From positions 10,418,001-10,482,000 of the forward strand of contig CM119372.1 of NCBI GenBank assembly GCA_051294905.1: 64,000 bases of DNA. Direction: 5' to 3'. The notes under the pieces are model-generated. The model was not told where the DNA came from and made no database searches. It saw only the letters and a list, made by a program, of their open reading frames with translations. The translations under genes were made by a program, and so were the position numbers. The DNA comes from Botryllus schlosseri. Lineage: Eukaryota. Positions 2,862 to 42,345 of this stretch are shown here, one piece after another; the stretch's first letter is position 1; the number at the start of each line of letters is the position of its first letter.

Positions 2862-3190
2862 GGGGAAGCGAGTGGCGCAGTTGGTTACGCACTGCAGTCA
2901 CGACACCAATGGATGTGGTTTCGAATCCCGGTTCTGACCAACATCTACGTGTCAGAGGTTTCTCTGGGCTCCTCATCGCCGATCCCACTACTACGGTAGT
3001 GCGTTGAAAAGCCCAGACCGAAAGTGAGCCGTGCTACAAGTCGGCAGCTGAGAAGAGGATGAAAGCCGTCCCCATGATTACGAAAGGCAAAGACACTATG
3101 AACATTATCACAATTCATGTCGTGGCAGCACATAGCTTGAAAAAGCGATAAGCGCCACTGTGTTGTACCAATAATAATAATAATAATAAT
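2862..3190 (+). mobile_element. tRNA-derived SINE with (TAA)n tail
   Basis: Pol III A box (TGGCGCAGTTGG) and B-box-like GTTTCGAATCC, with a (TAA)n tail at 3170-3190. TSD ATGCATAAAATTT at 2847-2859 and 4268-4280, the second copy displaced by the LINE. Body segments recur at ~15520-15685, ~16330-16440 and ~12165-12200. Confidence 0.8.
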
Positions 3191-3196
3191 GCATAA

Positions 3197-4258
3197 CAAT
3201 GCTCAAAATGAGAGAAACGATATGGGAATCGATGACTCTTCATGGACAGCACAAGAAGTTAACTTCACAGCCCCATGTAGACGAGCTTTCATGGACCTGG
3301 CTATCCAGCTCTGGCCTGAAACCGGCAAGCGAAGGATTCATTTTCGCAGCACAAGACCAATCGCTTCCTACAAAATACTATCGCAAAAGAATTCTGAAGC
3401 AAAACACGGACGGCAAATGCAGAATGTGCCACAACCAAAATGAAACTGTAGCACATCTCATGTCCGGCTGTGGTGCACTTGCAGCTACCGAATACACATG
3501 GAGACACAATAGGATTGGTCACTACATTCATCTTGAATTATGCAAACATTTTAACATCACCACTTCGACAAAAAATTGGTATGATTACAGCCCAGCACCA
3601 GTGACAGAAAACGAACAAGTAAAAATTCTGTGGGATGTACCAGTCATAACTGACCGCGAAATCAGGAGCAACCGCCCGGATATAATCGTCAAACTAAAGA
3701 AGAAAAGAGAATGCTTATTCATTGAACTGGCTGTCCCAGCTGATCACAACCTACTGCAAAAAGAATCAGAAAAATACTCCAAATACGCAGACCTCAAAAT
3801 GGAATGTGAGAAAATGTGGCGATGCAAAATAAACATTGTACCGATAGTCATTGGTGCTACAGGGGTCGTGAGCAAAAAACTCATGAGGCATATCCAACAA
3901 ATTCCGGGTAACGTTCGATTCGACATGATCCAGAAAATCACATTATTGGGCACTGTGCACATTCTTCGGAAGGCCTTGAATGCACCACTGGACTAAAATT
4001 ACACTTGTGAATCACAGCATAATTTCTGTAATTTCGATTCTTCGTCTTCAATCATCTCTACCTCTGCACTGTAACCCTTGCCAATTCTTCATCTGCTGCA
4101 ATTCTGTAATCTGACTTCTCCGTGTATTGCATAGGAATAACAATTTGAATGTATTACTGAAATTTTAAAAATTTACTCCAATCTCGCCATTTTCCTTTGG
4201 GGGCAGGTTGCTCCCCGGATTATGTGTGTATCTACCAGTTTTACTGTGAATAAAGAAT
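3197..4258 (+). mobile_element. 5'-truncated R4/Dong-type non-LTR retrotransposon (restriction-like endonuclease class)
   Basis: Contains the ORF at 3199-3996, then a 3' UTR with AATAAA at ~4248. 17-bp TSD ATAATAATAATGCATAA at 3180-3196 and 4259-4275. Confidence 0.85.
3199..3996 (+). CDS. C-terminal 265 aa of the non-LTR ORF: CCHC zinc knuckle plus RLE endonuclease; RT domain lost by truncation
   Basis: CRMC...H..SGC knuckle, RHN motif, ILWD, and RPDII...IELAVP...KYSKY (PD-(D/E)xK-type RLE). AAQDQSLPT is typical of R4/Dong-like ORFs. The frame is uninterrupted. Confidence 0.88.
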   Translation: MLKMRETIWESMTLHGQHKKLTSQPHVDELSWTWLSSSGLKPASEGFIFAAQDQSLPTKYYRKRILKQNTDGKCRMCHNQNETVAHLMSGCGALAATEYTWRHNRIGHYIHLELCKHFNITTSTKNWYDYSPAPVTENEQVKILWDVPVITDREIRSNRPDIIVKLKKKRECLFIELAVPADHNLLQKESEKYSKYADLKMECEKMWRCKINIVPIVIGATGVVSKKLMRHIQQIPGNVRFDMIQKITLLGTVHILRKALNAPLD

Positions 4259-5281
4259 ATAATAATAATGCATAAAATTTGTTCGATCTAAATCATACAA
4301 GTTGGTAAAGGTGAGCGCCGCGCAATCTAAGGACAGAACCGTCCAATAAACAGCGATACGTTGCTATTAAATTAATCTTCTACTACGACAATGCAAGCTG
4401 TGATTATTTCGTTTGCGGTTAGTGTTGTGATGTAGGATCAGTGAAACGTACAATCAGTGAATGACTGGTTGGTCTCACAAGTTACAACGGCATATCGTGA
4501 ATAATCCGAACATGCACAAATACATTGATTTTGTCGACACCGTTTACTTGATGACTTGAAATTGACTCGTAAATTTTGCTCCGAGTCACGAGTCAATCCA
4601 CATTTTTGAAGCGCCGAGTCAAGTCAAGTCAAGTCATTTTTGCAAAGTGACTCGAGTCAAGTCAGGTCATTCGAAAAAGTTGACTCGAGTCATCCCAACA
4701 CTGTTTCCTATATGGTCTGGCTATGTCTGCGGACAAGGATAAGTACGCCTAATGGGTTGAAGGTGCCGTGATATTTAGTAAACGATATGTTAATAGACTG
4801 CAGATGTTGCAGTCCGTTGACAGTGCAAGAAGAAGAATACGTTAAATTTATGATACCGCGACACAAAGGCAGTGATAATGAGAGAAAGTTTAACAAGTTT
4901 TACGCTGCCAATCTTACATGTGCCGGTGCTATGCATCTACATTCGCACTTTAACTCAAACGACGATTAATATCTTGGAAAATGTGGACTCCAAATTGACC
5001 CGAAATCAGAAAATCTGAGATGGGTTGACTTGACACGCGATTTGACTTGACTTGATACACGACTTTAAATTGAAAAGACTTGGCTAATGACTCGAGTCAA
5101 AATTTGCAGTGACTAGAAATGACTTGTGACTCGGAGATAGAGTGACTTGGTTCCAACATTGGTTCTGTATAATACACGGTCAATTTAAGATATCGTTGAT
5201 GACATAGGCAACTGCATATAACATGGCAGCTGGAAGAGAAAAAGTATAATTGCAAATAGAAATAAGCATTATCACACTTAC

Positions 5282-7996
5282 AACCCACACACCAACTTTG
5301 TTGCTTTTCCTTTTCTTCTCCAGTAGACTGTCAATATCGTAGTCCCCTGCTTTCAAAATTTCTTGTAAGATCAGATTGGTGCTGCCGTATGGCGCGTATA
5401 TTCCCGAATCCGAACGGTAAGAAAACGTCAAGTTGAAGGTATTGTCAAACTCGGTCAATTGAGAACCATGGTTTTTTTCCAAAGTCCACCATAAGTACAA
5501 TTTCTTCGGGTTTCTGAAAAATGGTTAATATAGTCGGGTCAGTGTGCGACTTCAGTTATAATATAATCCTATAAAAAGTGTAACTAAAATCAATATGACT
5601 GCTCATTGCCAACGTTCTTAGATTCGTAAATTAGAAAAAACAATTAATGGGAGTGGTATGGTTAGTAAAACATCGTAAACCAATGAAAGCAAATGCAGTC
5701 GTCTGCTACATTGACTTCTCTTATGAGCGCAACGCATATTATTTGAAATGTTTACGATAATAGTATTATTTTCGCAACGTTTCATAGTCCCCCAGCCGCC
5801 GTCGGTGTATAGAGAAATCACATCGTTCGAGAATTTGCCTTCGAGCTTTCGATCGCCATCAGCGCGACGCTGAATCGCAAAGTCTCGGGTCTTTATCGAC
5901 TGACATTGAAATTTCAGACTCATTTCAATATTCTCCGAAGATTTTATAGTGAATTCGGGGCCAAAATTATATAAATAACGACACCTATCGATGATAGCAA
6001 ACACCAGTTAACGCGACATATATGATGGTACGACGTTAAATAATAATATTATTATCACATTTGTCAGAAATGGAGTAGTTATTATCGTTACTCGGAAACA
6101 ATCAATCATTTTACTTGTTAGGCTGTTACTAAATATTTAATATTCATTGTCGATGAATATGCCGAATTAAAACACTCTTTACAATCCCATATGGCTTTTC
6201 CTGAGACATTCAGTCGAAGGTGTAGGCTACGATATATGCTAACCTCTACCAAATAATTTCGCAATGATTGGAATCGAAATAAATCATTTGCGCGTAAACG
6301 GCTGCACGATTGTATTATAGATGACTAATGACTGGAAACAATACCGCGAACAGCGTTGGATTGGTTGTCAAGCGTCATTACGGAAGGTCACAATATTATA
6401 TATATTGTATATGCATAACGTGCTTATAGCAACCTCTTTGGGATGCGTATTGCTAATACTAGAGGGCAATATCTCATGAATCAGTGATAGATACCACAGA
6501 ATTACCACAAACATATTATGCTTGTAACAAATACCCAACTTAGGGCCATCCCAATCGATTGTGAAGCCTTCCCGTTGGTTATGAGATTCTGTTGAAACTG
6601 GTCACACGCACACGCACATGAGAGCGCGCGCCACTGCAAATACATGGTATGATATATTAGCCTTACATGGGATGGTCTTCTTTTTAGTGGGAAACGCGAG
6701 CAGTCAATCAATACTGTTGTATTATTTTATTATCACCGAAACCAACCTTGGTCCGGGCACGGAATTCACACTTCCAGCTCCACTGTAATGGAATATTAGA
6801 GCACCGCTTTCGCTTAGCTTCGAACGATCGTACGTAATATCGCAGTCGATGTGGGCACCACATACTTGCGGATTCGCCAAATATGTTATTTTCGATCCGA
6901 ACTGCGGAGACCATATTAAAATGGTCGGCCTGTGTCCAGGAGGATTTACAATTTCGTTGAAAGTAGGATTTTGCAGGCCGATATAGCTTCCACTGGGAGC
7001 ATGTTCACCGGGAAGAACATCTCTTTTGTTTGGCGATAATCTGTCGAGACGCGGGGGCACGTTCACTATTTCCTCATTTACTGGTGCGTCACCCAATATT
7101 CTCTCGGTAATGGCGCGTTGCTTGGGTTGTATTCCTCGCGAATCATCATCCCTCTCTGGCGTACTCTGAAAACGTTCATACAGTGAAATCAACGATACTG
7201 GTAAAAAGCATAAGAGGGTTGTTGCGAAATGCGTGGAAAGGCATGTGACTTTACATACGCTCGAGACTCGACAGTCGACATTCGTTGACATTTGACAGGC
7301 AGTTTCACAATTTCGATGGACCGAGATGGATATGCGTCAGCCCTCAATATTACTGGGACACGATCTGACACATCACCTCACATCGACATATGCCTCGTAT
7401 ATTTCATCGCTAATTGCATACTATCCCTCATCTCTTTTAATCAACTGTGCATGACTCTTATTTTCATGCTATAGGGCAGGCACTATTAAGCGCCTGATTT
7501 TAAAGACTGCTCCATGTCCAAGCCTCCTATCTTTTCATTATATCGCAATCTTGTGGTGTTTTGATCTCATAAAAAATTCAATAAAATTGAACAATCAAGA
7601 GATGAAAAATTGCATAAACCTGGATAAAATTGAAATTGAAGCTGACAAGAGTTGACGGATGCAATTAAAATCTGAATATAGCCAACTGAAACTAGACTTT
7701 AATTAGAGACAATGAAAATGAGATCTTATTCGATATGCAAACAGCAATACAGACACCGTACACGACGTTTTCACTGCTCAGTGTTCAGTGTACACTGCGT
7801 GTGATTGCCTGAAGTTTGCACTATGAAGTATACTGTTAGCCATAAATTCAAACATTGAATTTAACGGCATAGCAGTGATGCCATCCCATACCGTGCTTGC
7901 CGTGTCCACTTTCACTTTCAGAAGCACTACTCCTACCGAGACCAGTAGCAACAGAATAAATTGTCTTCGTCTACGTCCGCAAATCAAAGCCTTCAT
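5282..7996 (-). CDS. GT10 alpha-1,3-fucosyltransferase-like gene, 5' part: exons 7996-7892, 7165-6747, 5513-5282; catalytic C-terminal exons not found in the window
   Basis: Type II signal anchor (RRRRQFILLLLVSVGVVLL), then CDITYDRSKLSESGALIFH, LYLWWTLE, FNLTFSYRSDSGIYAPYG and KVGVWV, matching GT10 N-terminal motifs. GT/AG sites keep the frame (105, 419 and 232 nt). Confidence 0.8.
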
Positions 7997-25590: not shown

Positions 25591-26436
25591 TAGGGTTCTG
25601 GTTTAAATCAGACTGATTTATGTCAGTGTGATTTAAATCAGGTTTTTCGTTGATTTTTTATTTTAATTTTACCATTTTGATTTTATTGATTATTTTTTTT
25701 CAAATTTTCGGACGAGATGCGTGAATATGGTTTATTATCGGACAATCATGTGCATTTCATATAAACCGGAGATAGCATCTCGTCACGGGCACCGGTATAG
25801 TTCAGCTGTTTTTCAGACAGACGGGAAAAGAGCAAAGAGCGATAGTCAATCAATATGTTAACGTTTTGCTGTGGATACTAGTTAGTTGTCTGCGACATGC
25901 TGCTGCTATTTCCGAGACACTGGTGGGATACAGCAAGCGTAGCGCAATCGAGAGTCTCTATAGAATTCGAAAAACGTTTTCAGCTATCATTACCATCATC
26001 ATCATTGGTTTATTAGCAATTTTATCAGTTCAATACACCACAAAAAATGCGATATAATGAAAAGAAAGGAAGATGTCGAAGCGATTAGGAGTTGTCTATG
26101 GAATCGGATACCCACCTTGGCCTAGGCGATGTAAAGAGGAGGCATGCACACTGAATGAAAGTAAAGAAGATAGTATAGAAAAAGGAAGCGACAAGAAATA
26201 GGGCGGCATGTCACATAGCTTGAACGTTTTCAGCTATCTGGATGATAATTCACAGCTCCACATTATTACAGGTTAAGCGATATCCTTCATCACCTTGATT
26301 GACATGTCGTCATTCATCCCCTTTTCTTTTGTTCGTGTTGTTGTTATTATGAGTGAAAAAGAAGTCGTGATTTGAATTATTTAATTGATTAAAATCGATT
26401 TTAATCAAGGGCAAAATGATTTAAGCCAGAACCCTA
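25591..26436. mobile_element. MITE with TIR TAGGGTTCTGG[T/C]TTAAATC, inserted in the left TIR of the hAT element
   Basis: 19-bp inverted ends with one mismatch. TSD is ambiguous (2-4 bp). Contains a LINE 3' fragment at ~25990-26215. Confidence 0.65.
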
Positions 26437-26499
26437 CGTAGCAGCAGGTAAACGAATGTACTAGGCAAATAACATATCAATAGCCGCCTCAAAACTGAA

Positions 26500-26854
26500 C
26501 TCGTTGGGCATTCGCCGAAGGGGGATCAGCGACAATATCCTCAAAATCAAGTTTTTGAACGTATAGTCTCTTTCTATAAAAAGAATGGATAGAGCTGATA
26601 GCTGATCATCATTCATGGTAGAACGTAACTAAGATTTTATCAGTTTTAGCTTTGAGTAGCTCCTCTCACAGCTCGCAATTGATACACCAATAATGGTTAG
26701 ACAAAGTTTCAGACACGAGCGTAAACATGGTGTCAAATCAAGTAGGTGTGATTTTACTAACCACTGTAAAACATCAAACGCCGTTGCATTACGATCACAC
26801 GTGGTTTCACTGCTCCGCACCAGCCTCCTAAATCTGTCAATATCCGCAGCTAAC
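26500..26854 (-). pseudogene. hAT transposase C-terminal dimerisation domain remnant (ZMYM1-like), cut at the palindrome insertion
   Basis: LKLCLTIIGVSIASCERSYSKLKLIKS*LRSTMNDDQLSALSILFIERD matches the hATC consensus SCERSFSKLKLIKxYLRSTM. Confidence 0.8.
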
Positions 26855-29800
26855 AGTAGTATATAGTTTGGGCGATCGACGCCCATTCTCGATTTATAAA
26901 GAACAAACAAACATTATCAAGATAATAAACAGTGTAAGAATTAGCTCATTCTCAATTTTGCAGCAATACTTTTATGACCTTGTGTGCGGCAATAAAAAAA
27001 GGGGGAATAATTAGCGATAGAGAGAAAACGAACAAAGAATCTGGATTGACCTTTGTACTCAGACATGAGACTGGAGTACTTCTACTTGTACTTTTCCACT
27101 CGCCTCCTGATTATAATACATTGTAATTTTACTGTATTTTTCCACGATTCACAGCTGACTTCGGTCGTACACGACGGTGATCATAGTTGCCTGCCCTGAC
27201 CTGTTGTTCCGTGGTCCAATTTAGTGGCTTGGGAACAATAACCCGTAAAACTGGTTGACTTGTTGTTCCGCGGTTGATTCATTTTCGTGTACGGTGGGTC
27301 ATAGGAATAATTGCCGGTCGTGACGTCAGTATAGTTTTCTTCTGATCCATGAGATCCTGGTGCGTGTTTTAGGTGTCTATACGTTCGGCTGTGCATAGTG
27401 ACGCATGTAGTCTGTTCCATACTGTCGTACTTGCTCTTGCTTTGTTGTCGACTTAAATAGTAAGGAGAAATGTTCTGGTTATAAATATGTGTGTCATTTT
27501 GAGTCATATCGAGAACCAGAATGTCGTGTATTAGAAATAGGTATTAGGCGCCCCCGACATAGATTAACTTGAATAAAGTACCATTTAGAATATAATAAGT
27601 AATTAAAGAAATAGCTCATTCTCAATTTGACTCGCATCAACGTGTTAATTTCCGATATTGTAGTAATTGGTGCAAGCAAAAACTGCTGTTCCACACCTTT
27701 ACCGCTTTCTAGCGTCTTAGGACAGACAGTCCCAACCAAACAATGTGATGGGTTCTTTTTACTGCTTCACGGTTGGTCAAGCGTAATCATCCCGGTGTCT
27801 GCAAATGATATTCAATTTACCACGGGATATTAATTTTGTATGCTGTACATGATATACAACTTGAATCGATCTGTTGGCGAACTAATGCTTTCCCCGTCTG
27901 TAACATACACATATCGATCACGAGCTCACCACGCACTTTTCGTTCGAGGGCGACTCATTTCGCTGCAGACAATCAGTTGTGTTCGCGTGTATCGTAACAT
28001 ATCCTCAAGACTTGTTATGCCAACACCTCCACGCATATTTACAATATCATACTAAGGAACTATTGCTTCGACAGCCACGCACTATCGCTCGAAGTCGACA
28101 AATTTCGCTACAGACAGTCAGTTGTGTTCACGTATGTGTCGTAAATATATCCTCAACACATGCTATGCCAATACCTCCAAGCATATTTGCATCATACTTA
28201 GGGTTCTGGTCAGGCTGATTTAAATCATCACGTGTCGACAATCGATCGAAGCCCGTCAACTGGTATTTTGAAAGCTAGCGGTATGGTGTATTATTGTGTA
28301 TGGATTGGTGCGGTATTAGAATTGTGGTTACGGCTCGTTGGCGGTGCGAGGATCAGGTTTATAGTATACTATAACTACTTAGCTCGGATACGACGCGCTG
28401 CTATCGTTGCTTTGTCCAAGACCTAATTCACGATAATCAATCTCGCTGTCGAAAATGACATGCGGCCGCGTAGACTGCATAGCGCCATTTTGTTTTGTGA
28501 TCCATCCTGCTGTGCCGAGGATCGAAACATATCCTCAACACATGCCAACACCTCCAAGCATATTTGCAGCATCATACTACGGATATATTGACTCGGCAGA
28601 GTGTTACCGCCAGAGAATTGCTGTGTCACGTCTTCGGGCCTTGCATTTTCCGCTCGGTAACTGCGAGTACGATGTTATTTCAATTGTCCACGAAACGAAT
28701 CGGGGTAGCTCGTTTCATTCGAAATCGGAATCCACTGCGACTATAGGATTGCAAAATCAAAGTCCAAAAAATCCGACTGGCACGTAAAGTACTGGTTTCT
28801 CCATATATTAGGCTGGGTAAAATGTAACATAAATCCAACTCTCAAAGACACTGCTGTAAGGGGAGTGTCGTTGTACATTAATTTGCGTACAGCGAAACTT
28901 TGTATGCGGTGGTGCAATAATGAGGATGAATTGTGCCAGATCACGTGAGGCAATCTAACCTTCTTTCGGTGAGGTGTAAAGATGAGCGGGGAGATTTCGA
29001 AATCTGACTCCACCCCGACTCGGGTTGCTAAATCAAAGTCCAAAAAATCCGGCTGGCTCGTAAAGTCCTGTTATTTCCACATGTTGTGAGGGTAAAATAC
29101 AGCATAAATCCGACTCTCAAGGCCATTTGGCCGCATCCAGACTGGCTTCGCTGAAAACTGATGAAATCTGCGCCGGGTCCGGAGATGTTTCGTGACCTCC
29201 TCCGTCCAGACAAGATTGTTCTGCTGTAATATAGGTGTCGTTGTATAATAATTTACGCCCAAGAAGACTTGGTATCGACCCTTTGGCGGAATTCTGTTTG
29301 GTTCGTCTGTACAGGTGTTATTAGTGCGATCAGATTTGGCGCCTCAAGGAGTATATTGGTAAAAATCACACAACGATGACAATAACTTTACCGGTCAACA
29401 TACGGTCAACGATGCGGTGTGATGTACGTAAATCAGCTGTGATCAATCGAGCGTGACACAATCGCTGTCAGTCATCAATCTGCGACTTGACAAAACTCGC
29501 GTTTTTTGGGTTGACAGCAACGCGATATATTTGATGTCCCCGTCGACCCTCCTAATAGGGTTACCATGCGGCCTCATTTAGGGGAGCATATGTCCTCCAT
29601 TTCCCAGATATGTCACCCAATTCACCTAAATGTACTCTCTTTCTGTCAGTTTGTCCTCCTTGTTAGCTCAACATTTCCAAAAAAAAAACACCACAAGTAA
29701 CGCAAAATGTGGGCCTAGATTACGAAAAGTCGGGTACGTAGCCAAATCGGAAAAATGACCCTATGATGGTATTGTGCAGGCTATTACGTGGATACGTGGG

Positions 29801-29895
29801 CGTGTGTAAACATGTGAATAGTAAAAGCGCCCCAAACTACCGTGAAAAAAGATCGAGCGCACTCGACCATGACGGGGCCACCTTAGTACAGCCAA

Positions 29896-30288
29896 ATGAT
29901 CCCGTGTCGTACCGGGAATAGCCGAGGTGGTGGTACATCATTCTCACAAAATGTACTTTGGAACGCGTGTGAAATCGACATTGTCCGCTACTCGACTGAC
30001 GCAAGTCGCCACTGCAGTCCCTCTCTGTGTATACACAATGTGCTGAGCACTGCAGATCCAGACGAGACTACGCATTCTGGCGAGGTTATCGAGATAGCTG
30101 GAGCGATTTACAACACATGCTACATTTACTTCAAACGGAATGACAAAATATGGTTTTGGAGTACTCAAGTAGTTTTAAGGGAATGTCAGTATCGTGATAT
30201 CGCTTTCTATCCTAATTATAAAAGAGTAGGTCCCCATAAAACTGTCGAGCTCAAGCACGTTGGTAACTGTGATAGTAGACAAAACTGA
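29896..30288 (+). CDS. Hypothetical 130-aa ORF in the left arm (mirror copy 37406-37798, minus), convergent with the IAP
   Basis: Second-longest ORF in the element. Weak resemblance to BRO-N (DKIWFWSTQVVLRECQY). Presence in both arms is not independent evidence of coding. Confidence 0.3.
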   Translation: MIPCRTGNSRGGGTSFSQNVLWNACEIDIVRYSTDASRHCSPSLCIHNVLSTADPDETTHSGEVIEIAGAIYNTCYIYFKRNDKIWFWSTQVVLRECQYRDIAFYPNYKRVGPHKTVELKHVGNCDSRQN

Positions 30289-30529
30289 CTCGAGTACCTC
30301 AGAAATAGTGACTGTATTTCGTTGCTGACCACGCGCCTGCTTATTCACACCGACTGACTCTCCTAGTAAGCAACTGCGCCCCCGTCATCTTCTTATTGCT
30401 CAAATAATTTTACAATTCACGAAATCCAATCTCATTTGTCGATAGTTTTATCAGAACAAAAGTCACAGTTACACAAGTCTCGTAAATAGGTGTCGATACA
30501 CTACAATCGTTTTATCGCCACTATTCAAC

Positions 30530-31708
30530 TCATAGCCCGATCACACGACTGACGTTTCCGCAGATCAATTTTTGACGTTTGATCAACTCTTGCCTGGTTA
30601 TGGGGTTTCTAATCACAGGGCGATTGAGATTAGGGTGTGTCTTTTCGATACGTTGCGCAAACTCGATACCTTTCGTTCGGAGTACGTATTCACACTGCGG
30701 AAACCATTTTGCATGTTCTGTCCAAACCTCGTCTTCACGGTCCCAACGAAGCCCGCCGTCACAGTAAAAGCATTTGGTTCTGTCCGAATCAACGTAGTAA
30801 AACCCCGCTTTTGCTAACTGTTCAACACTAGCTCTAATTTTATTCGGTTCCCAGCCCTTGTCGAACGTTGCGATTCTTTTTGACAACGACGACATGAGAG
30901 GGTTCACGGGTTTAAGACAAGGAAATAGTTGCTCAAGACATCGCTTTTCGTCCTCGGAGGGTTCCTCTGGTTCTTGCAGATGTAAAGTGAGACGTCGTAT
31001 TTTGTCGTCAAGCAACTTATCCAAATTGTCTCGTTCGTACTCGGTTAACGCCACATTCCCCGAATCGTCGCCACGTGCGAAACAACAATCCGAGCGATAC
31101 GTCAAGTGTATTTCAGATATATCGTCTGTAGGCCTCCAATTGCGTAGAACGCCGGAGCAGTTGAAGCACTGCGTTCTGTCCAGGTCACCGAGGTAGAATA
31201 AACCTTGTTTTGCCAACTCGCCGACCGCCCGTGGTATGGGATAGCTGGGCCATTTCTCAAAGGTTTCGCGACGCTCCGACTCCTTTCGCAAGTCGAGATT
31301 CCTAACCCGATACTCGTGCTCCTGATCAACGATATTCGCAAAGTTGATGTTGGCGTTTCCAGCGGCTTTACACTGTCTCAGTAAACTTTTGAAATTCGAT
31401 TTCACAATAGGTATGTTCAACGCGTCTCGTACACAATTCGCGTCATGACGCCGTGCACTCGACCCGGTCCATCTTTCGAGGTACGCACTGCACCCAAAGC
31501 ATTTGATTTTGTCTTCAAATCCTAGCCAGTAGTATCCCTCAGACGCTAAATCGGTGCGTGTTGCGTATGATACTTTAGAGAATTTGGCGAACGTGGCGAG
31601 TCTGTATAATTCAGTGCGGTGTGAACCGGAAGCGATATACACTCGTTTCTGTCCGGGCGGATCAGAGTATCTCTCCATTGACGTTATGCCAAGCTCTTTC
31701 ATAAACAT
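30530..31708 (-). CDS. Inhibitor of apoptosis (IAP/BIRC-like) protein, 392 aa, three BIR repeats, no RING; copy A
   Basis: RLATF...CFGC...H...C; RRETFEKWP...LAKQGLFY...CFNC-x16-H-x6-C; RIATF...LAKAGFYY...CFYCDGGL...EHAKWFPQC. Single uninterrupted ORF. Confidence 0.93.
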   Translation of the reverse strand: MFMKELGITSMERYSDPPGQKRVYIASGSHRTELYRLATFAKFSKVSYATRTDLASEGYYWLGFEDKIKCFGCSAYLERWTGSSARRHDANCVRDALNIPIVKSNFKSLLRQCKAAGNANINFANIVDQEHEYRVRNLDLRKESERRETFEKWPSYPIPRAVGELAKQGLFYLGDLDRTQCFNCSGVLRNWRPTDDISEIHLTYRSDCCFARGDDSGNVALTEYERDNLDKLLDDKIRRLTLHLQEPEEPSEDEKRCLEQLFPCLKPVNPLMSSLSKRIATFDKGWEPNKIRASVEQLAKAGFYYVDSDRTKCFYCDGGLRWDREDEVWTEHAKWFPQCEYVLRTKGIEFAQRIEKTHPNLNRPVIRNPITRQELIKRQKLICGNVSRVIGL

Positions 31709-34455
31709 GGAGTACTAAGACAGAGCTTTTTGTGTCTAAACGTGTCCCATAGGTCAACCGAGTCGGCTCACACATATATTCCTAGTTTATCCTTGAGAGC
31801 TGTATAGATTACCGGTAGCTGTACTTTTATGGCTAATTGACAACCGTTAGCTGTCGCTATTGCACCATTTACATATGTTTTTACCAGGAGCGGGCAACTT
31901 CTGCAATCCGCGGGGTGTGTATAGCAGAGTACCTTTGCGGTGCGTATTGCTGAATCGATGCATTTTTCGACCACCGATCAACATATACAAGGAATAAATC
32001 GTATTCAATCAATGTATTTTAGCAACAGCAATGTCACTACAAAGTCATATCTCGCCGATAATAACGAGGACAATGTGGATTTGAGAACCGTATTTTTATA
32101 CAGGCACCGCCATGTCTGCTTCTCCCTAATCAATTAACACACGGTGCAATACTTAAATAAGATTTCATAGTGGTCTATAAGCCTGATACCCTAAATTGAC
32201 AGAGATATCAATTCATTACAGTTGTTTTCTAACGACGCTACAGACAAGTATCAGTAAACACAAAACGAATTGTCACACTGTTGCGTCAATTCACCGACGA
32301 CTCAGTATGAGACACGCTCGACCAACGAATATGCATGGGACAACCGAAACAGGTGACCTTGCGTGGTGGGTATTTTCGATAACACCGATACGGCAACTTT
32401 ATTCTCTCTACTGGCAATGTGATGGAGAGCGGCTTAATTCATCAGACAAAGGCTGGAAGCAACAACTAGCAAAGACAAATCTAATGGCCACACCGACATT
32501 CACAGGTATTCGATAGACCCGATCATACCGAGGTCATCCCACTTCTGTAATGGCACGGGTACGAAGCATTTTGAACGGTGTTGCTCGGTCGTGGTTTTTG
32601 GCCTTCCAAGACCTCTGTTAGCATCAGTCTATCTCACTGTTGGAGTGCCAATGTCAAACGTCGTAATTGCGATCACTCGCTCATGTGTAGAATATAGAAA
32701 TTGACGCCTGTACTATTTGCACGACCTCATGGCTTTGGTAAACTTACTAAAGCGGAAAGTCACTGCCAAGTTGAACATTGATTGATCGTTCTCTTGTTAG
32801 CGTCGATATTCGCTCGTACGTGCTTTCATGTCTTTGAATTTTTGTTATCGTCGAGTGTGGTCATAAATAGACAGGGGGACAAATTTGATGCGTTCAACAC
32901 AATACGCGTTTACCACATCTCATTCCGGACCGTAACCGATCGTTGACCGAGCCTACGATAAACGTCGCTTTTTACTCATAGGTAAGCAGATGATCTGTGA
33001 AAACACAGGCGCTAACGTGTCATTTCGTTATTCCTTCAACGTCACATGACCGCCTATGAAGGCTTTTTGGGTGCCCACCAATACAGTGTTGAAACGTGAT
33101 CCATAGTAGTTTACACCTGGTGTGGAGCAGCGGAGCGGGTGCAGAAAGTAAATTAGACAACACAAACCAGTTGACTACATCGATGAATATACGAGGGCTC
33201 ATCAATTTTGTCAAGTGACTTTTGAATGGATGTTATTTTTGCCAAATAAACCCCCACTCTGTTTGTAGTTTGAAATAGTAACGTAATTAGTGGTTTTTCC
33301 GTTGGGTTAAACGCACTTTTGAACACGAAGTATATTGGCAAAATCGAGTGTGACACAAACGGTGTCAGTCGTCAATCTCCTGTTTGACTAAACTCACATA
33401 TTCGAGTGGGTTGACAGCAATGCGATACATTTGATGTTCACATCGATCCCTATATTTATAGGGTTGTCCTCCTCCTTTTCCCAAATATGTACAACCTTCG
33501 CCAAAATGTGTTCCTTTTTTGTAAATTTGTCCTCATTTTCAACTTAAAATAACAAAAAAAACCACGAATAACGCGAAATGTAGGTCTGGTCGATTTCGGT
33601 GAGTGACCTTTCATTTAGCTAACTCGCACAACACAAGTAATTGACAGGTATTTCGGTAGTCGAGTCAGATGAAATGACATTGTTTTATAGTCAATCTAAT
33701 GAAATTAGCGGTATAGATATAAAAATACGTCCTCCCCAATCGTAACTTGCAACCTGTGAAAAACGTGTACCGCAAACTATCCCCAACACCCCCAACAAAA
33801 CATAGTTGCGAAAAAATATCATACTATGGACGTATTGACTCGGCGGAGTGCTACCGTGAGAGAAATGCTGTTTGACCCCATCGACCTAGCCTTGGATTTA
33901 CCGTTCGAAAAATTCCACCAGTAGAAGTTGTGATCGAGTGTCGCAATCAACGTCAGCCACGCTCCATCAATCTGTTGCTTTGACAAAACTTGTACGTATA
34001 CACCAGAGATGAGCATTGATTAGGATTTAGAAAAAAAAGTATTTGTGCAATTTTGCTGAATTAGGATTGCATTAGGTTTTGAGATTGATTTACTATGTCG
34101 TACGGGCAATTACTACCGAGCCCCGTCGTGACGATATCGGATTAATCAGTCGTCGAACGACAAGTTAGGGCTAACCGTTTATACTCCTAGTTTATTCTTG
34201 AAAGCTCTATAGATTACTGGTTAGCTGTATTGTTGTGGGCGACTGAAAACAGTTAGTTGTCGCTATTGTACGATTTACACTTTGTGTTATACATTTTTTG
34301 TTACCACCACGAACTAGGAGATCAATCACGACGACGGGCAACTACTCCCAATTGGCGGAATACTGTTTGATTCATTTGTATATTCAGCTTTAGCACCACA
34401 AGAAGTATATTAGAAGTTTATGATTGAATACAATCTTATCCATCAAACAACAAAC

Positions 34456-37400
34456 AAATAACATCCATTCAAAAGTCACTTGACAAAATTGATGAGCCCT
34501 CGTATATTCATCGATGTAGTCAACTGGTTTGTGTTGTCTAATTTACTTTCTGCACCCGCTCCACTGCTCCACACCAGGTGTAAACTACTATGGATCACGT
34601 TTCAACACTGTATTGGTGGGCACCCAAAAAGCCTTCATAGGCGGTCATGTGACGTTGAAGGAATAACGAAATGACACGTTAGCGCCTGTGTTTTCACAGA
34701 TCATCTGCTTACCTATGAGTAAAAAGCGACGTTTATCGTAGGCTCGGTCAACGATCGGTTACGGTCCGGAATGAGATGTGGTAAACGCGTATTGTGTTGA
34801 ACGCATCAAATTTGTTCCCCTGTCTATTTATGACCACACTCGACGATAACAAAAATTCAAAGACATGAAAGCACGTACGAGCGAATATCGACGCTAACAA
34901 GAGAACGATCAATCAATGTTCAACTTGGCAGTGACTTTCCGCTTTAGTAAGTTTACCAAAGCCATGAGGTCGTGCAAATAGTACAGGCGTCAATTTCTAT
35001 ATTCTACACATGAGCGAGTGATCGCAATTACGACGTTTGACATTGGCACTCCAACAGTGAGATAGACTGATGCTAACAGAGGTCTTGGAAGGCCAAAAAC
35101 CACGACCGAGCAACACCGTTCAAAATGCTTCGTACCCGTGCCATTACAGAAGTGGGATGACCTCGGTATGATCGGGTCTATCGAATACCTGTGAATGTCG
35201 GTGTGGCCATTAGATTTGTCTTTGCTAGTTGTTGCTTCCAGCCTTTGTCTGATGAATTAAGCCGCTCTCCATCACATTGCCAGTAGAGAGAATAAAGTTG
35301 CCGTATCGGTGTTATCGAAAATACCCACCACGCAAGGTCACCTGTTTCGGTTGTCCCATGCATATTCGTTGGTCGAGCGTGTCTCATACTGAGTCGTCGG
35401 TGAATTGACGCAACAGTGTGACAATTCGTTTTGTGTTTACTGATACTTGTCTGTAGCGTCGTTAGAAAACAACTGTAATGAATTGATATCTCTGTCAATT
35501 TAGGGTATCAGGCTTATAGACCACTATGAAATCTTATTTAAGTATTGCACCGTGTGTTAATTGATTAGGGAGAAGCAGACATGGCGGTGCCTGTATAAAA
35601 ATACGGTTCTCAAATCCACATTGTCCTCGTTATTATCGGCGAGATATGACTTTGTAGTGACATTGCTGTTGCTAAAATACATTGATTGAATACGATTTAT
35701 TCCTTGTATATGTTGATCGGTGGTCGAAAAATGCATCGATTCAGCAATACGCACCGCAAAGGTACTCTGCTATACACACCCCGCGGATTGCAGAAGTTGC
35801 CCGCTCCTGGTAAAAACATATGTAAATGGTGCAATAGCGACAGCTAACGGTTGTCAATCAGCCATAAAAGTACAGCTACCGGTAATCTATACAGCTCTCA
35901 AGGATAAACTAGGAATATATGTGTGAGCCGACTCGGTTGACCTATGGGACACGTTTAGACACAAAAAGCTCTGTCTTAGTACTCCATGTTTATGAAAGAG
36001 CTTGGCATAACGTCAATGGAGAGATACTCTGATCCGCCCGGACAGAAACGAGTGTATATCGCTTCCGGTTCACACCGCACTGAATTATACAGACTCGCCA
36101 CGTTCGCCAAATTCTCTAAAGTATCATACGCAACACGCACCGATTTAGCGTCTGAGGGATACTACTGGCTAGGATTTGAAGACAAAATCAAATGCTTTGG
36201 GTGCAGTGCGTACCTCGAAAGATGGACCGGGTCGAGTGCACGGCGTCATGACGCGAATTGTGTACGAGACGCGTTGAACATACCTATTGTGAAATCGAAT
36301 TTCAAAAGTTTACTGAGACAGTGTAAAGCCGCTGGAAACGCCAACATCAACTTTGCGAATATCGTTGATCAAGAGCACGAGTATCGGGTTAGGAATCTCG
36401 ACTTGCGAAAGGAGTCGGAGCGTCGCGAAACCTTTGAGAAATGGCCCAGCTATCCCATACCACGGGCGGTCGGCGAGTTGGCAAAACAAGGTTTATTCTA
36501 CCTCGGTGACCTGGACAGAACGCAGTGCTTCAACTGCTCCGGCGTTCTACGCAATTGGAGGCCTACAGACGATATATCTGAAATACACTTGACGTATCGC
36601 TCGGATTGTTGTTTCGCACGTGGCGACGATTCGGGGAATGTGGCGTTAACCGAGTACGAACGAGACAATTTGGATAAGTTGCTTGACGACAAAATACGAC
36701 GTCTCACTTTACATCTGCAAGAACCAGAGGAACCCTCCGAGGACGAAAGGCGATGTCTTGAGCAACTATTTCCTTGTCTTAAACCCGTGAACCCTCTCAT
36801 GTCGTCGTTGTCAAAAAGAATCGCAACGTTCGACAAGGGCTGGGAACCGAATAAAATTAGAGCTAGTGTTGAACAGTTAGCAAAAGCGGGGTTTTACTAC
36901 GTTGATTCGGACAGAACCAAATGCTTTTACTGTGACGGCGGGCTTCGTTGGGACCGTGAAGACGAGGTTTGGACAGAACATGCAAAACGGTTTCCGCAGT
37001 GTGAATACGTACTCCGAACGAAAGGTATCGAGTTTGCGCAACGTATCGAAAAGACACACCCTAATCTCAATCGCCCTGTGATTAGAAACCCCATAACCAG
37101 GCAAGAGTTGATCAAACGTCAAAAATTGATCTGCGGAAACGTCAGTCGTGTGATCGGGCTATGAGTTGAATAGTGGCGATAAAACGATTGTAGTGTATCG
37201 ACACCTATTTACGAGACTTGTGTAACTGTGACTTTTGTGCTGATAAAACTATCGACAAATGAGATTGGATTTCGCGTATTGTAAAATTATTTGAGCAATA
37301 AGAAGATGACGGGGGCGCAGTTGCTTACTAGGAGAGTCAGTCGGTGTGAATAAGCAGGCGCGTGGTCAGCAACGAAATACAGTCACTATTTCTGAGGTAC

Positions 37401-40400
37401 TCGAGTCAGTTTTGTCTACTATCACAGTTACCAACGTGCTTGAGCTCGACAGTTTTATGGGGACCTACTCTTTTATAATTAGGATAGAAAGCGATATCAC
37501 GATACTGACATTCCCTTAAAACTACTTGAGTACTCCAAAACCATATTTTGTCATTCCGTTTGAAGTAAATGTAGCATGTGTTGTAAATCGCTCCAGCTAT
37601 CTCGATAACCTCGCCAGAATGCGTAGTCTCGTCTGGATCTGCAGTGCTCAGCACATTGTGTATACACAGAGAGGGACTGCAGTGGCGACTTGCGTCAGTC
37701 GAGTAGCGGACAATGTCGATTTCACACGCGTTCCAGAGTACATTTTGTGAGAATGATGTACCACCACCTCGGCTATTCCCGGTACGACACGGGATCATTT
37801 GGCTGTACTAAGGTGGCCCCGTCATGGTCGAGTGCGCTCGATCTTTTTTCACGGTAGTTTGGGGCGCTTTTACTATTCACATGTTTACACACGCCCACGT
37901 ATCCACGTAATAGCCTGCACAATACCATCATAGGGTCATTTTTCCGATTTGGCTACGTACCCGACTTTTCGTAATCTAGGCCCACATTTTGCGTTACTTG
38001 TGGTGTTTTTTTTTGGAAATGTTGAGCTAACAAGGAGGACAAACTGACAGAAAGAGAGTACATTTAGGTGAATTGGGTGACATATCTGGGAAATGGAGGA
38101 CATATGCTCCCCTAAATGAGGCCGCATGGTAACCCTATTAGGAGGGTCGACGGGGACATCAAATATATCGCGTTGCTGTCAACCCAAAAAACGCGAGTTT
38201 TGTCAAGTCGCAGATTGATGACTGACAGCGATTGTGTCACGCTCGATTGATCACAGCTGATTTACGTACATCACACCGCATCGTTGACCGTATGTTGACC
38301 GGTAAAGTTATTGTCATCGTTGTGTGATTTTTACCAATATACTCCTTGAGGCGCCAAATCTGATCGCACTAATAACACCTGTACAGACGAACCAAACAGA
38401 ATTCCGCCAAAGGGTCGATACCAAGTCTTCTTGGGCGTAAATTATTATACAACGACACCTATATTACAGCAGAACAATCTTGTCTGGACGGAGGAGGTCA
38501 CGAAACATCTCCGGACCCGGCGCAGATTTCATCAGTTTTCAGCGAAGCCAGTCTGGATGCGGCCAAATGGCCTTGAGAGTCGGATTTATGCTGTATTTTA
38601 CCCTCACAACATGTGGAAATAACAGGACTTTACGAGCCAGCCGGATTTTTTGGACTTTGATTTAGCAACCCGAGTCGGGGTGGAGTCAGATTTCGAAATC
38701 TCCCCGCTCATCTTTACACCTCACCGAAAGAAGGTTCGATTGCCTCACGTGATCTGGCACAATTCATCCTCATTATTGCACCACTGCATACAAAGTTTCG
38801 CTGTACGCAAATTAATGTACAACGACACTCCCCTTACAGCAGTGTCTTTGAGAGTTGGATTTATGTTACATTTTACCCAGCCTAATATATGGAGAAACCA
38901 GTACTTTACGTGCCAGTCGGATTTTTTGGACTTTGATTTTGCAATCCTATAGTCGCAGTGGATTCCGATTTCGAATGAAACGAGCTACCCCGATTCGTTT
39001 CGTGGACAATTGAAATAACATCGTACTCGCAGTAACCGAGCGGAAAATGCAAGGCCCGAAGACGTGACACAGCAATTCTCTGGCGGTAACACTCTGCCGA
39101 GTCAATATATCCGTAGTATGATGCTGCAAATATGCTTGGAGGTGTTGGCATGTGTTGAGGATATGTTTCGATCCTCGGCACAGCAGGATGGATCACAAAA
39201 CAAAATGGCGCTATGCAGTCTACGCGGCCGCATGTCATTTTCGACAGCGAGATTGATTATCGTGAATTAGGTCTTGGACAAAGCAACGATAGCAGCGCGT
39301 CGTATCCGAGCTAAGTAGTTATAGTATACTATAAACCTGATCCTCGCACCTCCAACGAGCCGTAACCACAATTCTAATACCGCACCAATCCATACACAAT
39401 AATACACCATACCGGTAGCTTTCAAAATACCAGTTGACGGGCTTCGATCGATTGTCGACACGTGATGATTTAAATCAGCCTGACCAGAACCCTAAGTATG
39501 ATGCAAATATGCTTGGAGGTATTGGCATAGCATGTGTTGAGGATATATTTACGACACATACGTGAACACAACTGACTGTCTGTAGCGAAATTTGTCGACT
39601 TCGAGCGATAGTGCGTGGCTGTCGAAGCAATAGTTCCTTAGTATGATATTGTAAATATGCGTGGAGGTGTTGGCATAACAAGTCTTGAGGATATGTTACG
39701 ATACACGCGAACACAACTGATTGTCTGCAGCGAAATGAGTCGCCCTCGAACGAAAAGTGCGTGGTGAGCTCGTGATCGATATGTGTATGTTACAGACGGG
39801 CAAAGCATTAGTTCGCCAACAGATCGATTCAAGTTGTATATCATGTACAGCATACAAAATTAATATCCCGTGGTAAATTGAATATCATTTGCAGACACCG
39901 GGATGATTACGCTTGACCAACCGTGAAGCAGTAAAAAGAACCCATCACATTGTTTGGTTGGGACTGTCTGTCCTAAGACGCTAGAAAGCGGTAAAGGTGT
40001 GGAACAGCAGTTTTTGCTTGCACCAATTACTACAATATCGGAAATTAACACGTTGATGCGAGTCAAATTGAGAATGAGCTATTTCTTTAATTACTTATTA
40101 TATTCTAAATGGTACTTTATTCAAGTTAATCTATGTCGGGGGCGCCTGATACCTATTTCTAATACACGACATTCTGGTTCTCGATATGACTCAAAATGAC
40201 ACACATATTTATAACCAGAACATTTCTCCTTACTATTTAAGTCGACAACAAAGCAAGAGCAAGTACGACAGTATGGAACAGACTACATGCGTCACTATAC
40301 ACAGCCGAACGTATAGACACCCAAAACACGCACCAGGATCTCATGGATCAGAAGAAAACTATACTGACGTCACGACCGGCAATTATTCCTATGACCCACC

Positions 40401-40824
40401 GTACACGAAAATGAATCAACCGCGGAACAACAAGTCAACCAGTTTTACGGGTTATTGTTCCCAAGCCACTAAATTGGACCACGGAACAACAGGTCAGGGC
40501 AGGCAACTATGATCACCGTCGTGTACGACCGAAGTCAGCTGTGAATCGTGGAAAAATACAGTAAAATTACAATGTATTATAATCAGGAGGCGAGTGGAAA
40601 AGTACAAGTAGAAGTACTCCAGTCTGAGTACAAAGGTCAATCCAGATTCGTTTTCTCTCTATCGTTAATTATTCCCCCTTTTTTTATTGCCGCACACAAG
40701 GTCATAAAAGTATTGCTGCAAAATTGAGAATGAGCTAATTCTTACACTGTTTATTATCTTGATAATGTTTGTTTGTTCTTTATAAATCGCGAATGGGCGT
40801 CGATCGCCCAAACATATTACTACT
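34456..40824. repeat. Right inverted arm (6369 bp)
   Basis: Mirror of 26855-33238. The 1217-bp spacer is 33239-34455. Confidence 0.97.
35986..37164 (+). CDS. IAP protein, 392 aa; copy B (K255R and W335R relative to copy A)
   Basis: Mirror copy of 30530-31708 with an intact frame. HAKRFP replaces HAKWFP. Confidence 0.93.
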   Translation: MFMKELGITSMERYSDPPGQKRVYIASGSHRTELYRLATFAKFSKVSYATRTDLASEGYYWLGFEDKIKCFGCSAYLERWTGSSARRHDANCVRDALNIPIVKSNFKSLLRQCKAAGNANINFANIVDQEHEYRVRNLDLRKESERRETFEKWPSYPIPRAVGELAKQGLFYLGDLDRTQCFNCSGVLRNWRPTDDISEIHLTYRSDCCFARGDDSGNVALTEYERDNLDKLLDDKIRRLTLHLQEPEEPSEDERRCLEQLFPCLKPVNPLMSSLSKRIATFDKGWEPNKIRASVEQLAKAGFYYVDSDRTKCFYCDGGLRWDREDEVWTEHAKRFPQCEYVLRTKGIEFAQRIEKTHPNLNRPVIRNPITRQELIKRQKLICGNVSRVIGL

Positions 40825-42345
40825 GCTAACTCCCATTTACCAATACTGATCCTAATCGAAAGCTATTGTTGCCCTGGTTGATTCCGGAAATACAATTTAA
40901 AATCTGGTCCGGGCAACGGAACCACCCCGAAATAGCTGTCAAAGTTTGAAAATCGGCATTATTCCGAATAATAATAATCGCTCGATACAATTTCCATTAT
41001 CATGGTCAATTGGTCAATGTGTTGCGGCGCCCCGATTGTTCGGAACATTCGGCCTTGACGGCTATTTCGGAGTCGTTCCATTGCGATGCTCACATTTTTA
41101 TGTGTGTCTTCGGAATCAGTGCGACACTAGCTTTTGATTGAGATCAGTTTGATTTAATTTTGGCTCTCGGGACTACCAGTTACTCTGCTTTAACCGACTG
41201 TGTATAGGCTACTGTGCACTCCTGTGCAGCCCCATATGCCGTCCCCTTGGAGCCTGCCGCTCCTGGCGCAGAGCATAACCGCCAAGTGGCTGCTACGCCA
41301 CTGCACTGATAATAATCTGACGAATATTGGTGAATGCTGCTACTCGATCTATTTTGAGAATAGTCTCGCGGGCTACTCATCTGGTCCTCGCGGGCTACCT
41401 GGGGGCCGCGGGTACCGCGTTCGTGACCCCTGCAGTAAAGGGTGTATTTGTAGGACCTTAAATCAGAACCCTCACCAAAAAAAATACATGACTCTCTTTC
41501 ATTGAAGTTGCATCTAAATTTCTTGGAAATACTGAGGGTCCTGATTATTTGGAGGTGTTTCGTATCATATACGGACCTAAACGGGCATAAGCGCCCTTGA
41601 TACAGCCGTTTTTGAGTAAAATTTTTATTCGTTTTTTTGCGAAAAATTGTGACGTGATGAGTGAATTCTGACGGCAAATTCAGAATCAGCATCGTCAAAT
41701 TAGGTAAATTCAATTAACCGGTCTAAAAAAAAGTTGAAAAATGTCTACCAGTGATATTCAAAAGAGCTTAGCTCAAGACTCATTTCTAAAACTTCAGATC
41801 TTGGTTAATGGACATTGGACATTGCGATGGGTATATGGCCGTCCGTTAGTCTGCGATGGTATACGGCAATTCCGTTGTCTACGGATATCAGCTTACAGTT
41901 TATACTTAACTGGCACTTCCGCAGTAGCTGACACGAACGTCCTGCGTTCTGTGTAGTTCTTGACTGGCAGTTCAATAGAGACGACAACAATTGCCTTTTC
42001 CAGATATATTGTACGGGTCGATAGTAATTCGGATAGTTTAAGCAGTAAGTACAGCGTACATGAGTCTCGTATATAAATCAGAGTCCATTATACGATATGC
42101 GCTAGGTAATATACCAGCGATAAGTCACGTGATATAGAATTATACCATAACAGATAGGAGAGAAATGGAGCCAGAGCTCCTACAACATGCAATAATAGAA
42201 ACTAGAAAGGCAGCATCTGGACGAGCTATAAGAATCCCAAATCAGAATTCGTAGATTCAACTCAAAACAACTTCAACACACCACAAGACTGCGATACAAC
42301 GAAATGATAGGAAAGGTGTCGAAACGACTTGGAGTAGACTTGGAC

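Follow-up and report, generated by a model that had tools for sequence, protein, structure and literature searches.

A palindromic 14-kb insertion with two IAP genes in Botryllus schlosseri is probably a helper-dependent derivative of a Maverick/Polinton element

We analyzed a stretch of 64,000 nucleotides from Botryllus schlosseri (assembly GCA_051294905.1, contig CM119372.1, positions 10,418,001 to 10,482,000 of the forward strand), referred to here as the window and numbered from its first letter. At positions 26855–40824 the window holds an element of ~14 kb that starts with AGTAGT, ends with ACTACT, and is built largely of two inverted arms around a spacer, with one inhibitor of apoptosis (IAP) gene in each arm. 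The element belongs to a repeated family, here called family 1, whose other copies are designated by letters (A, B, C, and so on). It also shares its ends with an autonomous Maverick in the same genome, which we call helper 1, and with a recombinant element, hybrid X. The features of the locus are as follows.

26355..26854, no strand assigned: left flank, belonging to a dispersed hAT-like repeat into which the element inserted (genome search with the flank)
26849..26854, no strand assigned: left copy of the target-site duplication (TSD), GCTAAC (flank sequence; paralogous empty sites hold a single copy)
26855..27101, forward strand: terminal 247 bp common to helper 1, 82–84% identity with the first 16 bases identical; the putative cis site for the integrase and for protein-primed initiation
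26855..33238, forward strand: arm 1, 6384 bp, starting AGTAGT (inverted-repeat search); its haplotype is that of copies A and X, one of two sister lineages
28228..28525, forward strand: subterminal stretch, 88% identical to a region ~0.7–1.0 kb inside the right end of helper 1
30530..31708, reverse strand: IAP gene 1, an intronless open reading frame (ORF) of 392 aa with three BIR domains and no RING
33239..34455, no strand assigned: spacer, 1217 bp, non-palindromic (inverted-repeat search)
34456..40824, reverse strand: arm 2, 6369 bp, repeating arm 1 in inverted orientation up to the terminal ACTACT; its haplotype is that of copy B, the other sister lineage
35986..37164, forward strand: IAP gene 2, the intact mirror copy, differing from gene 1 by K255R and W335R
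40825..40830, no strand assigned: right copy of the TSD, GCTAAC (flank sequence)
40831..41320, no strand assigned: right flank, the same dispersed hAT-like repeat continuing (genome search with the flank)

The segment from 26855 to 40824 is a precise insertion. The left junction reads gctaac/AGTAGT at 26855 and the right junction ACTACT/gctaac at 40824, and the 6-bp TSD is perfect. When the genome was searched with each flank, seven paralogous loci matched both flanks in alignments overlapping by exactly 6 bp, so that the flanks are contiguous there and the target hexamer is single. At two further loci, the flank matches were adjacent with an offset of ~3 bases. Because the best 40 of 873 candidates for the left flank and the best 40 of 2644 for the right were scored, the remaining matches appear in one list only. 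An ORF belonging to the left flank (26632–26913, reverse strand) contains a hAT dimerization domain (Pfam, E = 7.6e-5).

The same ends and duplications recur elsewhere in the genome. Thirteen other AGTAGT-ended elements each have a 6-bp TSD of their own (12 perfect and one with one mismatch), which brings the count to 13 perfect TSDs in the 14 elements examined, window copy included. Termini of the form 5'-AG...CT-3' were found throughout: of 20 aligned ends, 19 have AGTAGT...ACTACT and one reads AGCAGT, and AGTAGT...ACTACT also bounds both helpers and family 2, a second palindromic family described below. In the aligned ends, the ~30 bases after AGTAGT are variable, and conserved blocks follow. 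The AGT reiteration is twofold at the ends and threefold at one end of copy L.

The arms account for 91% of the length of the element and, by exact comparison, are 99.405% identical over 6385 columns, with 21 mismatches, five gap openings, and 40 differing columns in total, 20 of which lie in the outer 214 bp. TRF reported no tandem arrays between 26855 and 40824, and the whole 64-kb window contained no Rfam families at gathering thresholds. Aligning the arms of four elements (the window copy, A, B, and hybrid X) demonstrates that the window copy is a mixed palindrome, with arm 1 of the A/X haplotype (11–12 differing columns) and arm 2 of the B haplotype (7–11 differing columns). Copies A and B have like arms (10 differing columns within each), and A-type arms differ from B-type arms at 39–45 columns. 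The second arm of copy B nevertheless carries an A-type patch at window-equivalent positions ~29958–30455. This patch and the mixed arms indicate that arms have been exchanged and patch-converted between elements or between arms, and, as the window arms are of different haplotypes, arms are not always homogenized. Over longer spans, the arms within one copy are far more alike than the lineages are to one another. Arm boundaries are identical in copies A and B and the window copy, and spacer positions 104–1217 recur at the centers of other family-1 copies with 88–95% identity. This conserved 1.1-kb center, together with the shared arm boundaries, argues against a fresh snap-back event for each copy.

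We scanned 58 stop-to-stop ORFs of at least 50 aa, from arm 1 and the spacer, against Pfam. Inside the element, a single one matched a family, namely the three-BIR ORF at 30530–31708 on the reverse strand (PF00653, E = 5.3e-46). PF00653 was matched in three stretches of the protein, and a regular-expression search found the C..C...H......C pattern in BIR2 and BIR3. With its mirror copy, this gene forms a divergent, head-to-head pair whose products are two residues apart. One of these residues is codon 335 of IAP gene 2 (window 36984–36986), which encodes Arg in place of Trp in the "HAKW" stretch of BIR3, as it does in both arms of copy B; Trp335 corresponds to a peptide-groove Trp of XIAP BIR3. 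No Maverick core genes were among the Pfam matches of the 58 ORFs, and no pPolB, rve integrase, or capsid module was found in the window element. A tblastn search with 16 helper ORFs likewise found no helper-gene remnants in the element beyond one subterminal stretch.

The closest named relatives of the IAP are ascidian, led by Styela clava at 45% and followed by Clavelina, Ciona, and Phallusia (36–45% identity, BIRC7/XIAP-like). Most of these relatives have a RING domain, and the alignment was limited to their residues ~53–488. The same Pfam scan gave no RING match in the element ORFs, and the C-terminal parts of six ascidian IAPs had no match in the arm (tblastn, E ≤1). From the extent of the alignment and the unmatched C-terminal parts, the cargo is an intronless three-BIR protein without a RING, and its origin is probably in the host lineage. 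Proteins with BIR and RING domains from Endozoicomonas, one of them named after ascidians, are 30–35% identical to the cargo IAP (E = 4e-72 and 3e-46); they represent IAP-like proteins of a bacterium associated with the presumed host group.

An earlier reading made from the sequence only (the sequence-only reading) had described a perfect GCTAAC TSD and AGTAGT..ACTACT ends, both of which are borne out by the junction sequence and the seven paralogous empty sites. Its two inverted arms of ~6.4 kb, making up ~91% of the element around a 1217-bp spacer, also stand, with the refinement that arm identity is 99.4% and that each arm derives from a different sister lineage. It had further named an intact, head-to-head IAP in each arm as the only recognizable gene, and the Pfam scan and the intact mirror ORF agree, adding that the protein has no RING.

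IAP copies are numerous in this genome. A search with the IAP protein scored 105 of 451 candidates and listed 107 places, among which ~73 were at ≥90% identity and ~31 at 61–71%, almost all in inverted pairs. Most of the listed copies have open frames. Between the window copy and copy N, the ratio of non-synonymous to synonymous substitution rates (dN/dS) is 0.18, with 29.5 synonymous and 20.5 non-synonymous differences (binomial p = 5e-9). Ratios of 0.29 and 0.33 were obtained between other diverged family-1 lineages, a binomial p of 1e-3 also being obtained within family 1, and the ratio between families 1 and 2 is 0.15, with synonymous sites near saturation. These ratios of 0.15–0.33 indicate that the IAP evolves under purifying selection. 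Sister IAP copies are also transcribed. A single-cell RNA library yielded 58 reads from ~3% of the run, with a depth peak at 30455–31008, where the ORF has its 3' end, and in the orientation of sense transcripts; variants in these reads (for example, 10 of 11 reads at 30620) match sister copies and not the window copy. A further run, guessed to be RNA, covered non-coding parts as it did coding ones, and we do not count it as evidence of expression. Two loose ends in the RNA reads were considered as splice junctions and rejected, as one reflects a 12-bp length difference of a sister copy and the other is unmatched in the window; the reads thus gave no sign of an intron.

The comparison of copies covers 10 non-autonomous members of family 1 (the window copy and nine more, picked from paired matches of a search with the first 500 bp), hybrid X, and a single helper of family 1; from family 2, it takes in one palindromic copy and the two ends of one helper. 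The search with the first 500 bp scored the best 40 of 330 candidates, and the scored matches were mostly inverted pairs 11–23 kb apart. A 24-base subterminal motif occurs 121 times in forward and 128 times in reverse orientation in the 495-Mb genome (control, 0/0), and these 249 occurrences correspond to roughly 125 elements. Among the 100 places listed for the motif, there were 42 adjacent plus/minus pairs, 16 of them spaced at 13.4–15.0 kb and 10 at 16.0–16.9 kb.

Palindromy is a family-wide trait and not an oddity of the window copy. All 10 non-autonomous family-1 copies examined are palindromic, with arm identities of 98.3–99.95%, and they are 79–99.9% identical to the window copy. The nine further copies have their own 6-bp TSDs (eight perfect, one with one mismatch), and perfect TSDs flank sister copies that are only 0.1–0.6% apart and lie at unrelated sites. 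In copies C, H, and J, the arm interiors are largely different and there is no IAP. As these copies are palindromic all the same, the IAP is not needed for spread. No Pfam families were found in 10 ORFs of copies C, H, and J, in three non-IAP ORFs of the family-2 copy, or in two ORFs of an insertion in copy L. Copy L (C3:11094632-11117978) is an old member of family 1 whose IAPs have decayed (78% identity, five to six stops each), and its center holds this ~12-kb insertion, within which lies a perfect inverted repeat of 3567 bp (L033:6043-9609 versus L034:8880-5314). In sequencing runs filed under two other organism codes, 42–47% of the 31-mers sampled from the flank, arm, and spacer were present, which points to near-identical element sequence under other species labels.

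Helper 1 is a non-palindromic, ORF-packed element of 16.4 kb, with terminal inverted repeats (TIRs) of ~340 bp that are 93% identical and a TSD of TGCGGT; one copy was read. It agrees with the window element in all of the first 16 bases, at 82–84% identity over the terminal 247 bp, and at 88% over a subterminal stretch of ~300 bp. Its 1016-aa polymerase ORF contains exonuclease and polymerase motifs recognized by eye (FDYES, FNGSRYD, LDSNCLYL, KDIANSCIGK, and YSDTDS), which we take to be family B polymerase motifs. This ORF has no Pfam match itself, and only 12 homologs were found in a large protein collection, one of them carrying PF03175. A profile of this polymerase family (10 sequences) had phi29 DNA polymerase as its top match among solved structures (E = 1.6e-4), and a phmmer search of the polymerase against PDB sequences returned nothing relevant. 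Among the polymerase matches listed in the genome, 15 were full-length at 97–100% identity, four were at 64–65%, and 18 were at 38–39%. The last group forms a third Maverick-type polymerase lineage, its 18 listed matches having open frames of 1212–1306 aa.

Three other ORFs of helper 1 could be assigned. A 365-aa ORF matches rve integrase (E = 2.6e-7, 31.3 bits) and the transposase family phrog_956 (E = 6.3e-5), and a PHROGs search of 15 helper-1 ORFs recognized the integrase only. For a 219-aa ORF with a Walker A motif, 25 of the 30 nearest clusters in the Atlas are those of Pox_A32 packaging ATPases (score 0.98), which we take only as a lead toward an A32-like ATPase. A 504-aa ORF has 339 homologs, several of them named "F54H12.2-like." Structure prediction (predicted local distance difference test, 78; predicted template-modeling score, 0.76) shows this ORF to be, on its modeled fold, a double jelly-roll capsid protein. 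The predicted fold matches the double jelly-roll major capsid proteins of Sputnik (template-modeling score 0.59), PBCV-1, iridovirus, and mavirus (E ~1e-14), as well as adomavirus, MELD-virus, and virophage proteins in BFVD. No BIR was found in the one helper-1 copy read.

A direct connection between the two kinds of element is provided by hybrid X (C5:1057222-1072800), which has one end of each type. The left 7.57 kb of hybrid X is 99.84% identical to positions 1–7570 of the window element, which comprise arm 1 and 1186 of the 1217 bases of the spacer. At a 4-bp overlap, the sequence passes into the right 7.3 kb of helper 1, including the polymerase, at 95–99% identity. The junction lies 31 bp short of where arm 2 would start, as expected if a replicating satellite and a helper had undergone a template switch or illegitimate recombination. 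The TTCATT TSD of hybrid X is perfect, from which it follows that the hybrid itself transposed.

From these observations, we read the insertion as a non-autonomous, helper-dependent derivative, or satellite, of a Maverick/Polinton virus-like element, with a probability of roughly 0.8. That the helper mobilizes it in trans is, in our judgment, probable as well. The sequence-only reading had proposed a helper-dependent, satellite-like derivative that kept its ends, and this gains support from the further copies and from a helper with shared termini, trans-mobilization being inferred. It had pointed to other copies with different 6-bp TSDs, of which nine non-autonomous ones were found, and to an autonomous element with polymerase, integrase, capsid, and the same termini, which the 16.4-kb helper supplies (first 16 bases, polymerase, rve, and capsid). 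Its suggestion of a route for mobile amplification of IAP genes finds support in the 107 listed IAP matches in the genome, ~73 of them at ≥90% identity.

A different account of the same copies is that they were mobile in the past and are now host gene amplicons, their palindromes kept by intrachromosomal gene conversion and the host benefiting from the IAPs. Ampliconic sex-chromosome palindromes, which are kept by intrachromosomal gene conversion, are the model for this account. The purifying selection on the IAP and the open frames of most listed IAP copies fit it, as do the patchy exchange between arm haplotypes and the high arm identity, which holds even in copy L with its decayed IAPs and central insertion. 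It sits poorly, however, with sister copies 0.1–0.6% apart that have perfect TSDs at unrelated sites, with helpers whose polymerase frames are long and open, and with a satellite-helper hybrid that itself transposed. These three observations point to recent or ongoing mobility, and the gene-less palindromic copies also count against host amplicons. We consider this account quite improbable, though it is compatible with a helper-dependent satellite and does not exclude one.

The genome contains a second such pair. A family-2 copy (C4:18241053-18255845) is a palindrome of 14.8 kb whose arms, 7382 bp each, differ at two positions (99.97% identity) and enclose a spacer of just 31 bp, and it has AGTAGT..ACTACT ends and the TSD ATTACT. 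It carries convergent genes for 407-aa three-BIR IAPs near its center and has no blastn similarity to family 1 or helper 1. The terminal 37-mer of family 2 occurs 8 + 9 times in the genome (control, 0/0). The same 37-mer bounds a 17.7-kb element (C1:29035972-29053642) with the TSD AACGTG and TIRs of at least 390 bp, of which the ends were read. This element is 90–91% identical to family 2 over the terminal 165 bp, has within it a polymerase match from the 64% lineage, and is likely the helper of family 2. With the 37-mer on both the palindrome and the 17.7-kb element, there are two Maverick lineages, each with a palindromic, IAP-carrying derivative. The IAPs of families 1 and 2 are 69.9% identical at the amino acid level, and the helper polymerases are 64% identical.

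The family-2 copy, with its 31-bp spacer and two differences over 7382-bp arms, has the look of an unfolded hairpin. It could be argued on this basis that the replicating unit is one arm plus a loop, a duplex of ~7 kb closed by a hairpin at one end and copied in a rolling-hairpin-like manner, with the 14-kb palindrome as its unfolded form. Palindromy would then be a replication strategy and not an accident kept by conversion, and its universality in both non-autonomous families and absence from both helpers agree with this. The conserved 1.1-kb non-palindromic center of many family-1 copies does not, nor do the window arms of two haplotypes, which are not expected if a palindrome is regenerated from one arm. 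Moreover, the helpers encode a protein-primed polymerase, and a hairpin-nicking protein was not recognized in general Pfam scans of helper 1. We hold a hairpin satellite to be improbable, less so than host amplicons.

With both families in view, the remaining doubts about the class and reality of the element can be addressed. The element has no core genes of its own, very long inverted repeats are typical of foldback-type elements, and chimeric foldback reads can yield false palindromes; the locus could thus be assigned to another DNA-transposon superfamily, to the foldback type, or to an assembly artifact. The coding elements found with these termini are, however, Mavericks only, in two lineages, and hybrid X joins an arm to the polymerase module inside one TSD. 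The arms lack the tandem sub-repeats of foldback elements. An artifact is excluded by 11 palindromic copies at different loci (10 of family 1 and one of family 2), each with its own TSD, along with the seven paralogous empty sites. These possibilities are largely refuted and retain almost no weight; assembly artifact, host-only inverted duplication, and another transposon superfamily were rejected.

Several points nonetheless weigh against a helper-dependent Maverick/Polinton derivative. Beyond the first 16 bases, the termini of helper and satellite are only 82–84% identical, trans-mobilization being a step that we infer. The PF03175 model finds no matches genome-wide, not even in the helper-1 polymerase itself, and matched no control genome either; the search is empty because the model misses this divergent polymerase. 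The rve score of the integrase, 31.3 bits, is just under the Pfam cut-off of 32.6, and protease and penton were not recognized in helper 1 by Pfam or PHROGs. Three of the 10 family-1 copies (C, H, and J) are palindromic with neither an IAP nor any Pfam-recognizable ORF, some IAP copies have stop codons, and RNA support is thin (the 58 reads from ~3% of one run carry sister-copy variants, and a second RNA run gave one read). Finally, the two arms of the window copy are of different sister haplotypes, with 40 differing columns, and the palindrome at this locus is known from the assembly, the DNA runs consisting of short contigs unable to span the junctions.

We propose the following mechanism for a helper-dependent satellite. 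The window element would keep only cis-acting ends, with no enzymes or capsid of its own, and co-resident autonomous Mavericks would supply the polymerase, rve integrase, packaging ATPase, and capsid in trans. The helper integrase and the complex of terminal protein and polymerase would act on the AGTAGT ends of satellites; the integration itself is staggered by 6 bp. The twofold AGT reiteration may represent the terminal repetition that protein-primed replicons use for end recovery; in adenovirus, a trinucleotide jump back and terminal reiteration are described for protein priming (PMC5175343). The body of the element would be an inverted duplication of one element end. With one IAP gene per arm, each transposition adds two anti-apoptotic genes. 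The IAP may delay the death of cells in which helper and satellite replicate, and this would explain its conservation.

The palindrome itself could have arisen by strand switching or snap-back copying on the displaced strand during protein-primed, strand-displacing replication, by analogy with adenovirus defective genomes that contain inverted duplications; we give this origin a little less than an even chance. The likeness of arms might be maintained by hairpin-heteroduplex repair of the displaced strand, by central template switching, or by arm-to-arm gene conversion in the chromosome, and mixed-arm copies, the window copy among them, would be accounted for by exchange between elements that replicate together.

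The satellites of the two unrelated palindromic families measure ~13.4–15.0 kb, just below the 16.4 and 17.7 kb of their helpers, and this near-helper length may reflect a packaging limit. A more far-reaching version of the helper-dependent reading is that there are two co-diverging bipartite pairs, in each of which the Maverick supplies replication, integration, and capsid, and a packaged palindromic satellite supplies the IAP. The palindromic satellite would be made and renewed by the strand-displacing replication of the helper. The divergence of the IAPs (70% identity) is similar to that of the polymerases (64% identity), which, with the satellite sizes and the lack of BIR in the helper copy, is compatible with a bipartite arrangement. 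We regard this version as doubtful, though better placed than a hairpin satellite.

Elsewhere in the window, an ORF at 3190–3993 on the forward strand has a weak zf-RVT match, below the cut-off, and is a retroelement remnant. Another, at 6725–7336 on the reverse strand, contains a fucosyltransferase N-terminal domain at the cut-off (E = 1.8e-6).

Helper-dependent satellites of this kind would offer a concrete, testable mechanism for the dispersed amplification of intronless IAP genes, and would mean that large families of derivatives, gene-less or with cargo alone, can arise from Maverick/Polinton elements. The genome tolerates dozens of near-perfect 14-kb palindromes, those of one family having a spacer of 31 bp, and provides a natural system for the study of palindrome stability, arm homogenization, and strand switching by protein-primed polymerases. 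Should the satellites be packaged, an animal Maverick would have a helper/satellite system carrying a gene for control of the host. In the literature, a phrase search for "non-autonomous/nonautonomous Polinton(s)/Maverick(s)" found use of the term for Tlr1 only, with Repbase-type catalogs outside the search. Nothing linking Polintons or Mavericks to whole-element palindromes was found by title and abstract among the papers listed, one preprint from that search describing terminal palindromes of 52 nt. A 2026 survey of metazoan IAPs in 312 species names retrotransposition or unspecified DNA transposons as the main source of intronless copies; on a term search, neither "Maverick" nor "Polinton" occurs in it (PMC13159474).

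Among known systems, the window element resembles Polintons/Mavericks in its AG..CT ends, TIRs, 6-bp TSD, size of ~14–17 kb, and a partner with pPolB, rve integrase, ATPase, and capsid. It differs in lacking core genes, where Polintons have been defined by pPolB and integrase (PMC5499653), and in having inverted repeats that take up 91% of its length and not a few hundred bp. An IAP on a Maverick-like replicon has precedent in adintoviruses, which are described as carrying IAP and Bcl2 homologs (PMC8502044); the IAP there is part of a complete viral genome, as described, whereas here it is the sole gene of a palindromic derivative present in dozens of copies. The cargo resembles viral and cellular IAPs in its three BIR domains, and differs from them in having no RING, being intronless, and being borne on a transposon. 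Foldback transposons such as Drosophila FB and Galileo also have very long inverted repeats, little or no coding sequence, and many non-autonomous copies. Their TSDs, however, are 7–9 bp and their inverted repeats contain tandem sub-repeats, whereas here the TSD is 6 bp, TRF finds no arrays in the arms, and the partner is a Maverick and not a P- or FB-type transposase. Defective adenovirus genomes, in which one end is duplicated in inverted orientation to give two good origins, are helper-dependent. Adenovirus is similar in being a protein-primed linear replicon with trinucleotide terminal reiteration, as described in PMC5175343. Unlike defective adenovirus genomes, the present elements are heritable by virtue of integration, fall into diversified lineages, and bear a gene under selection that is probably host-derived.

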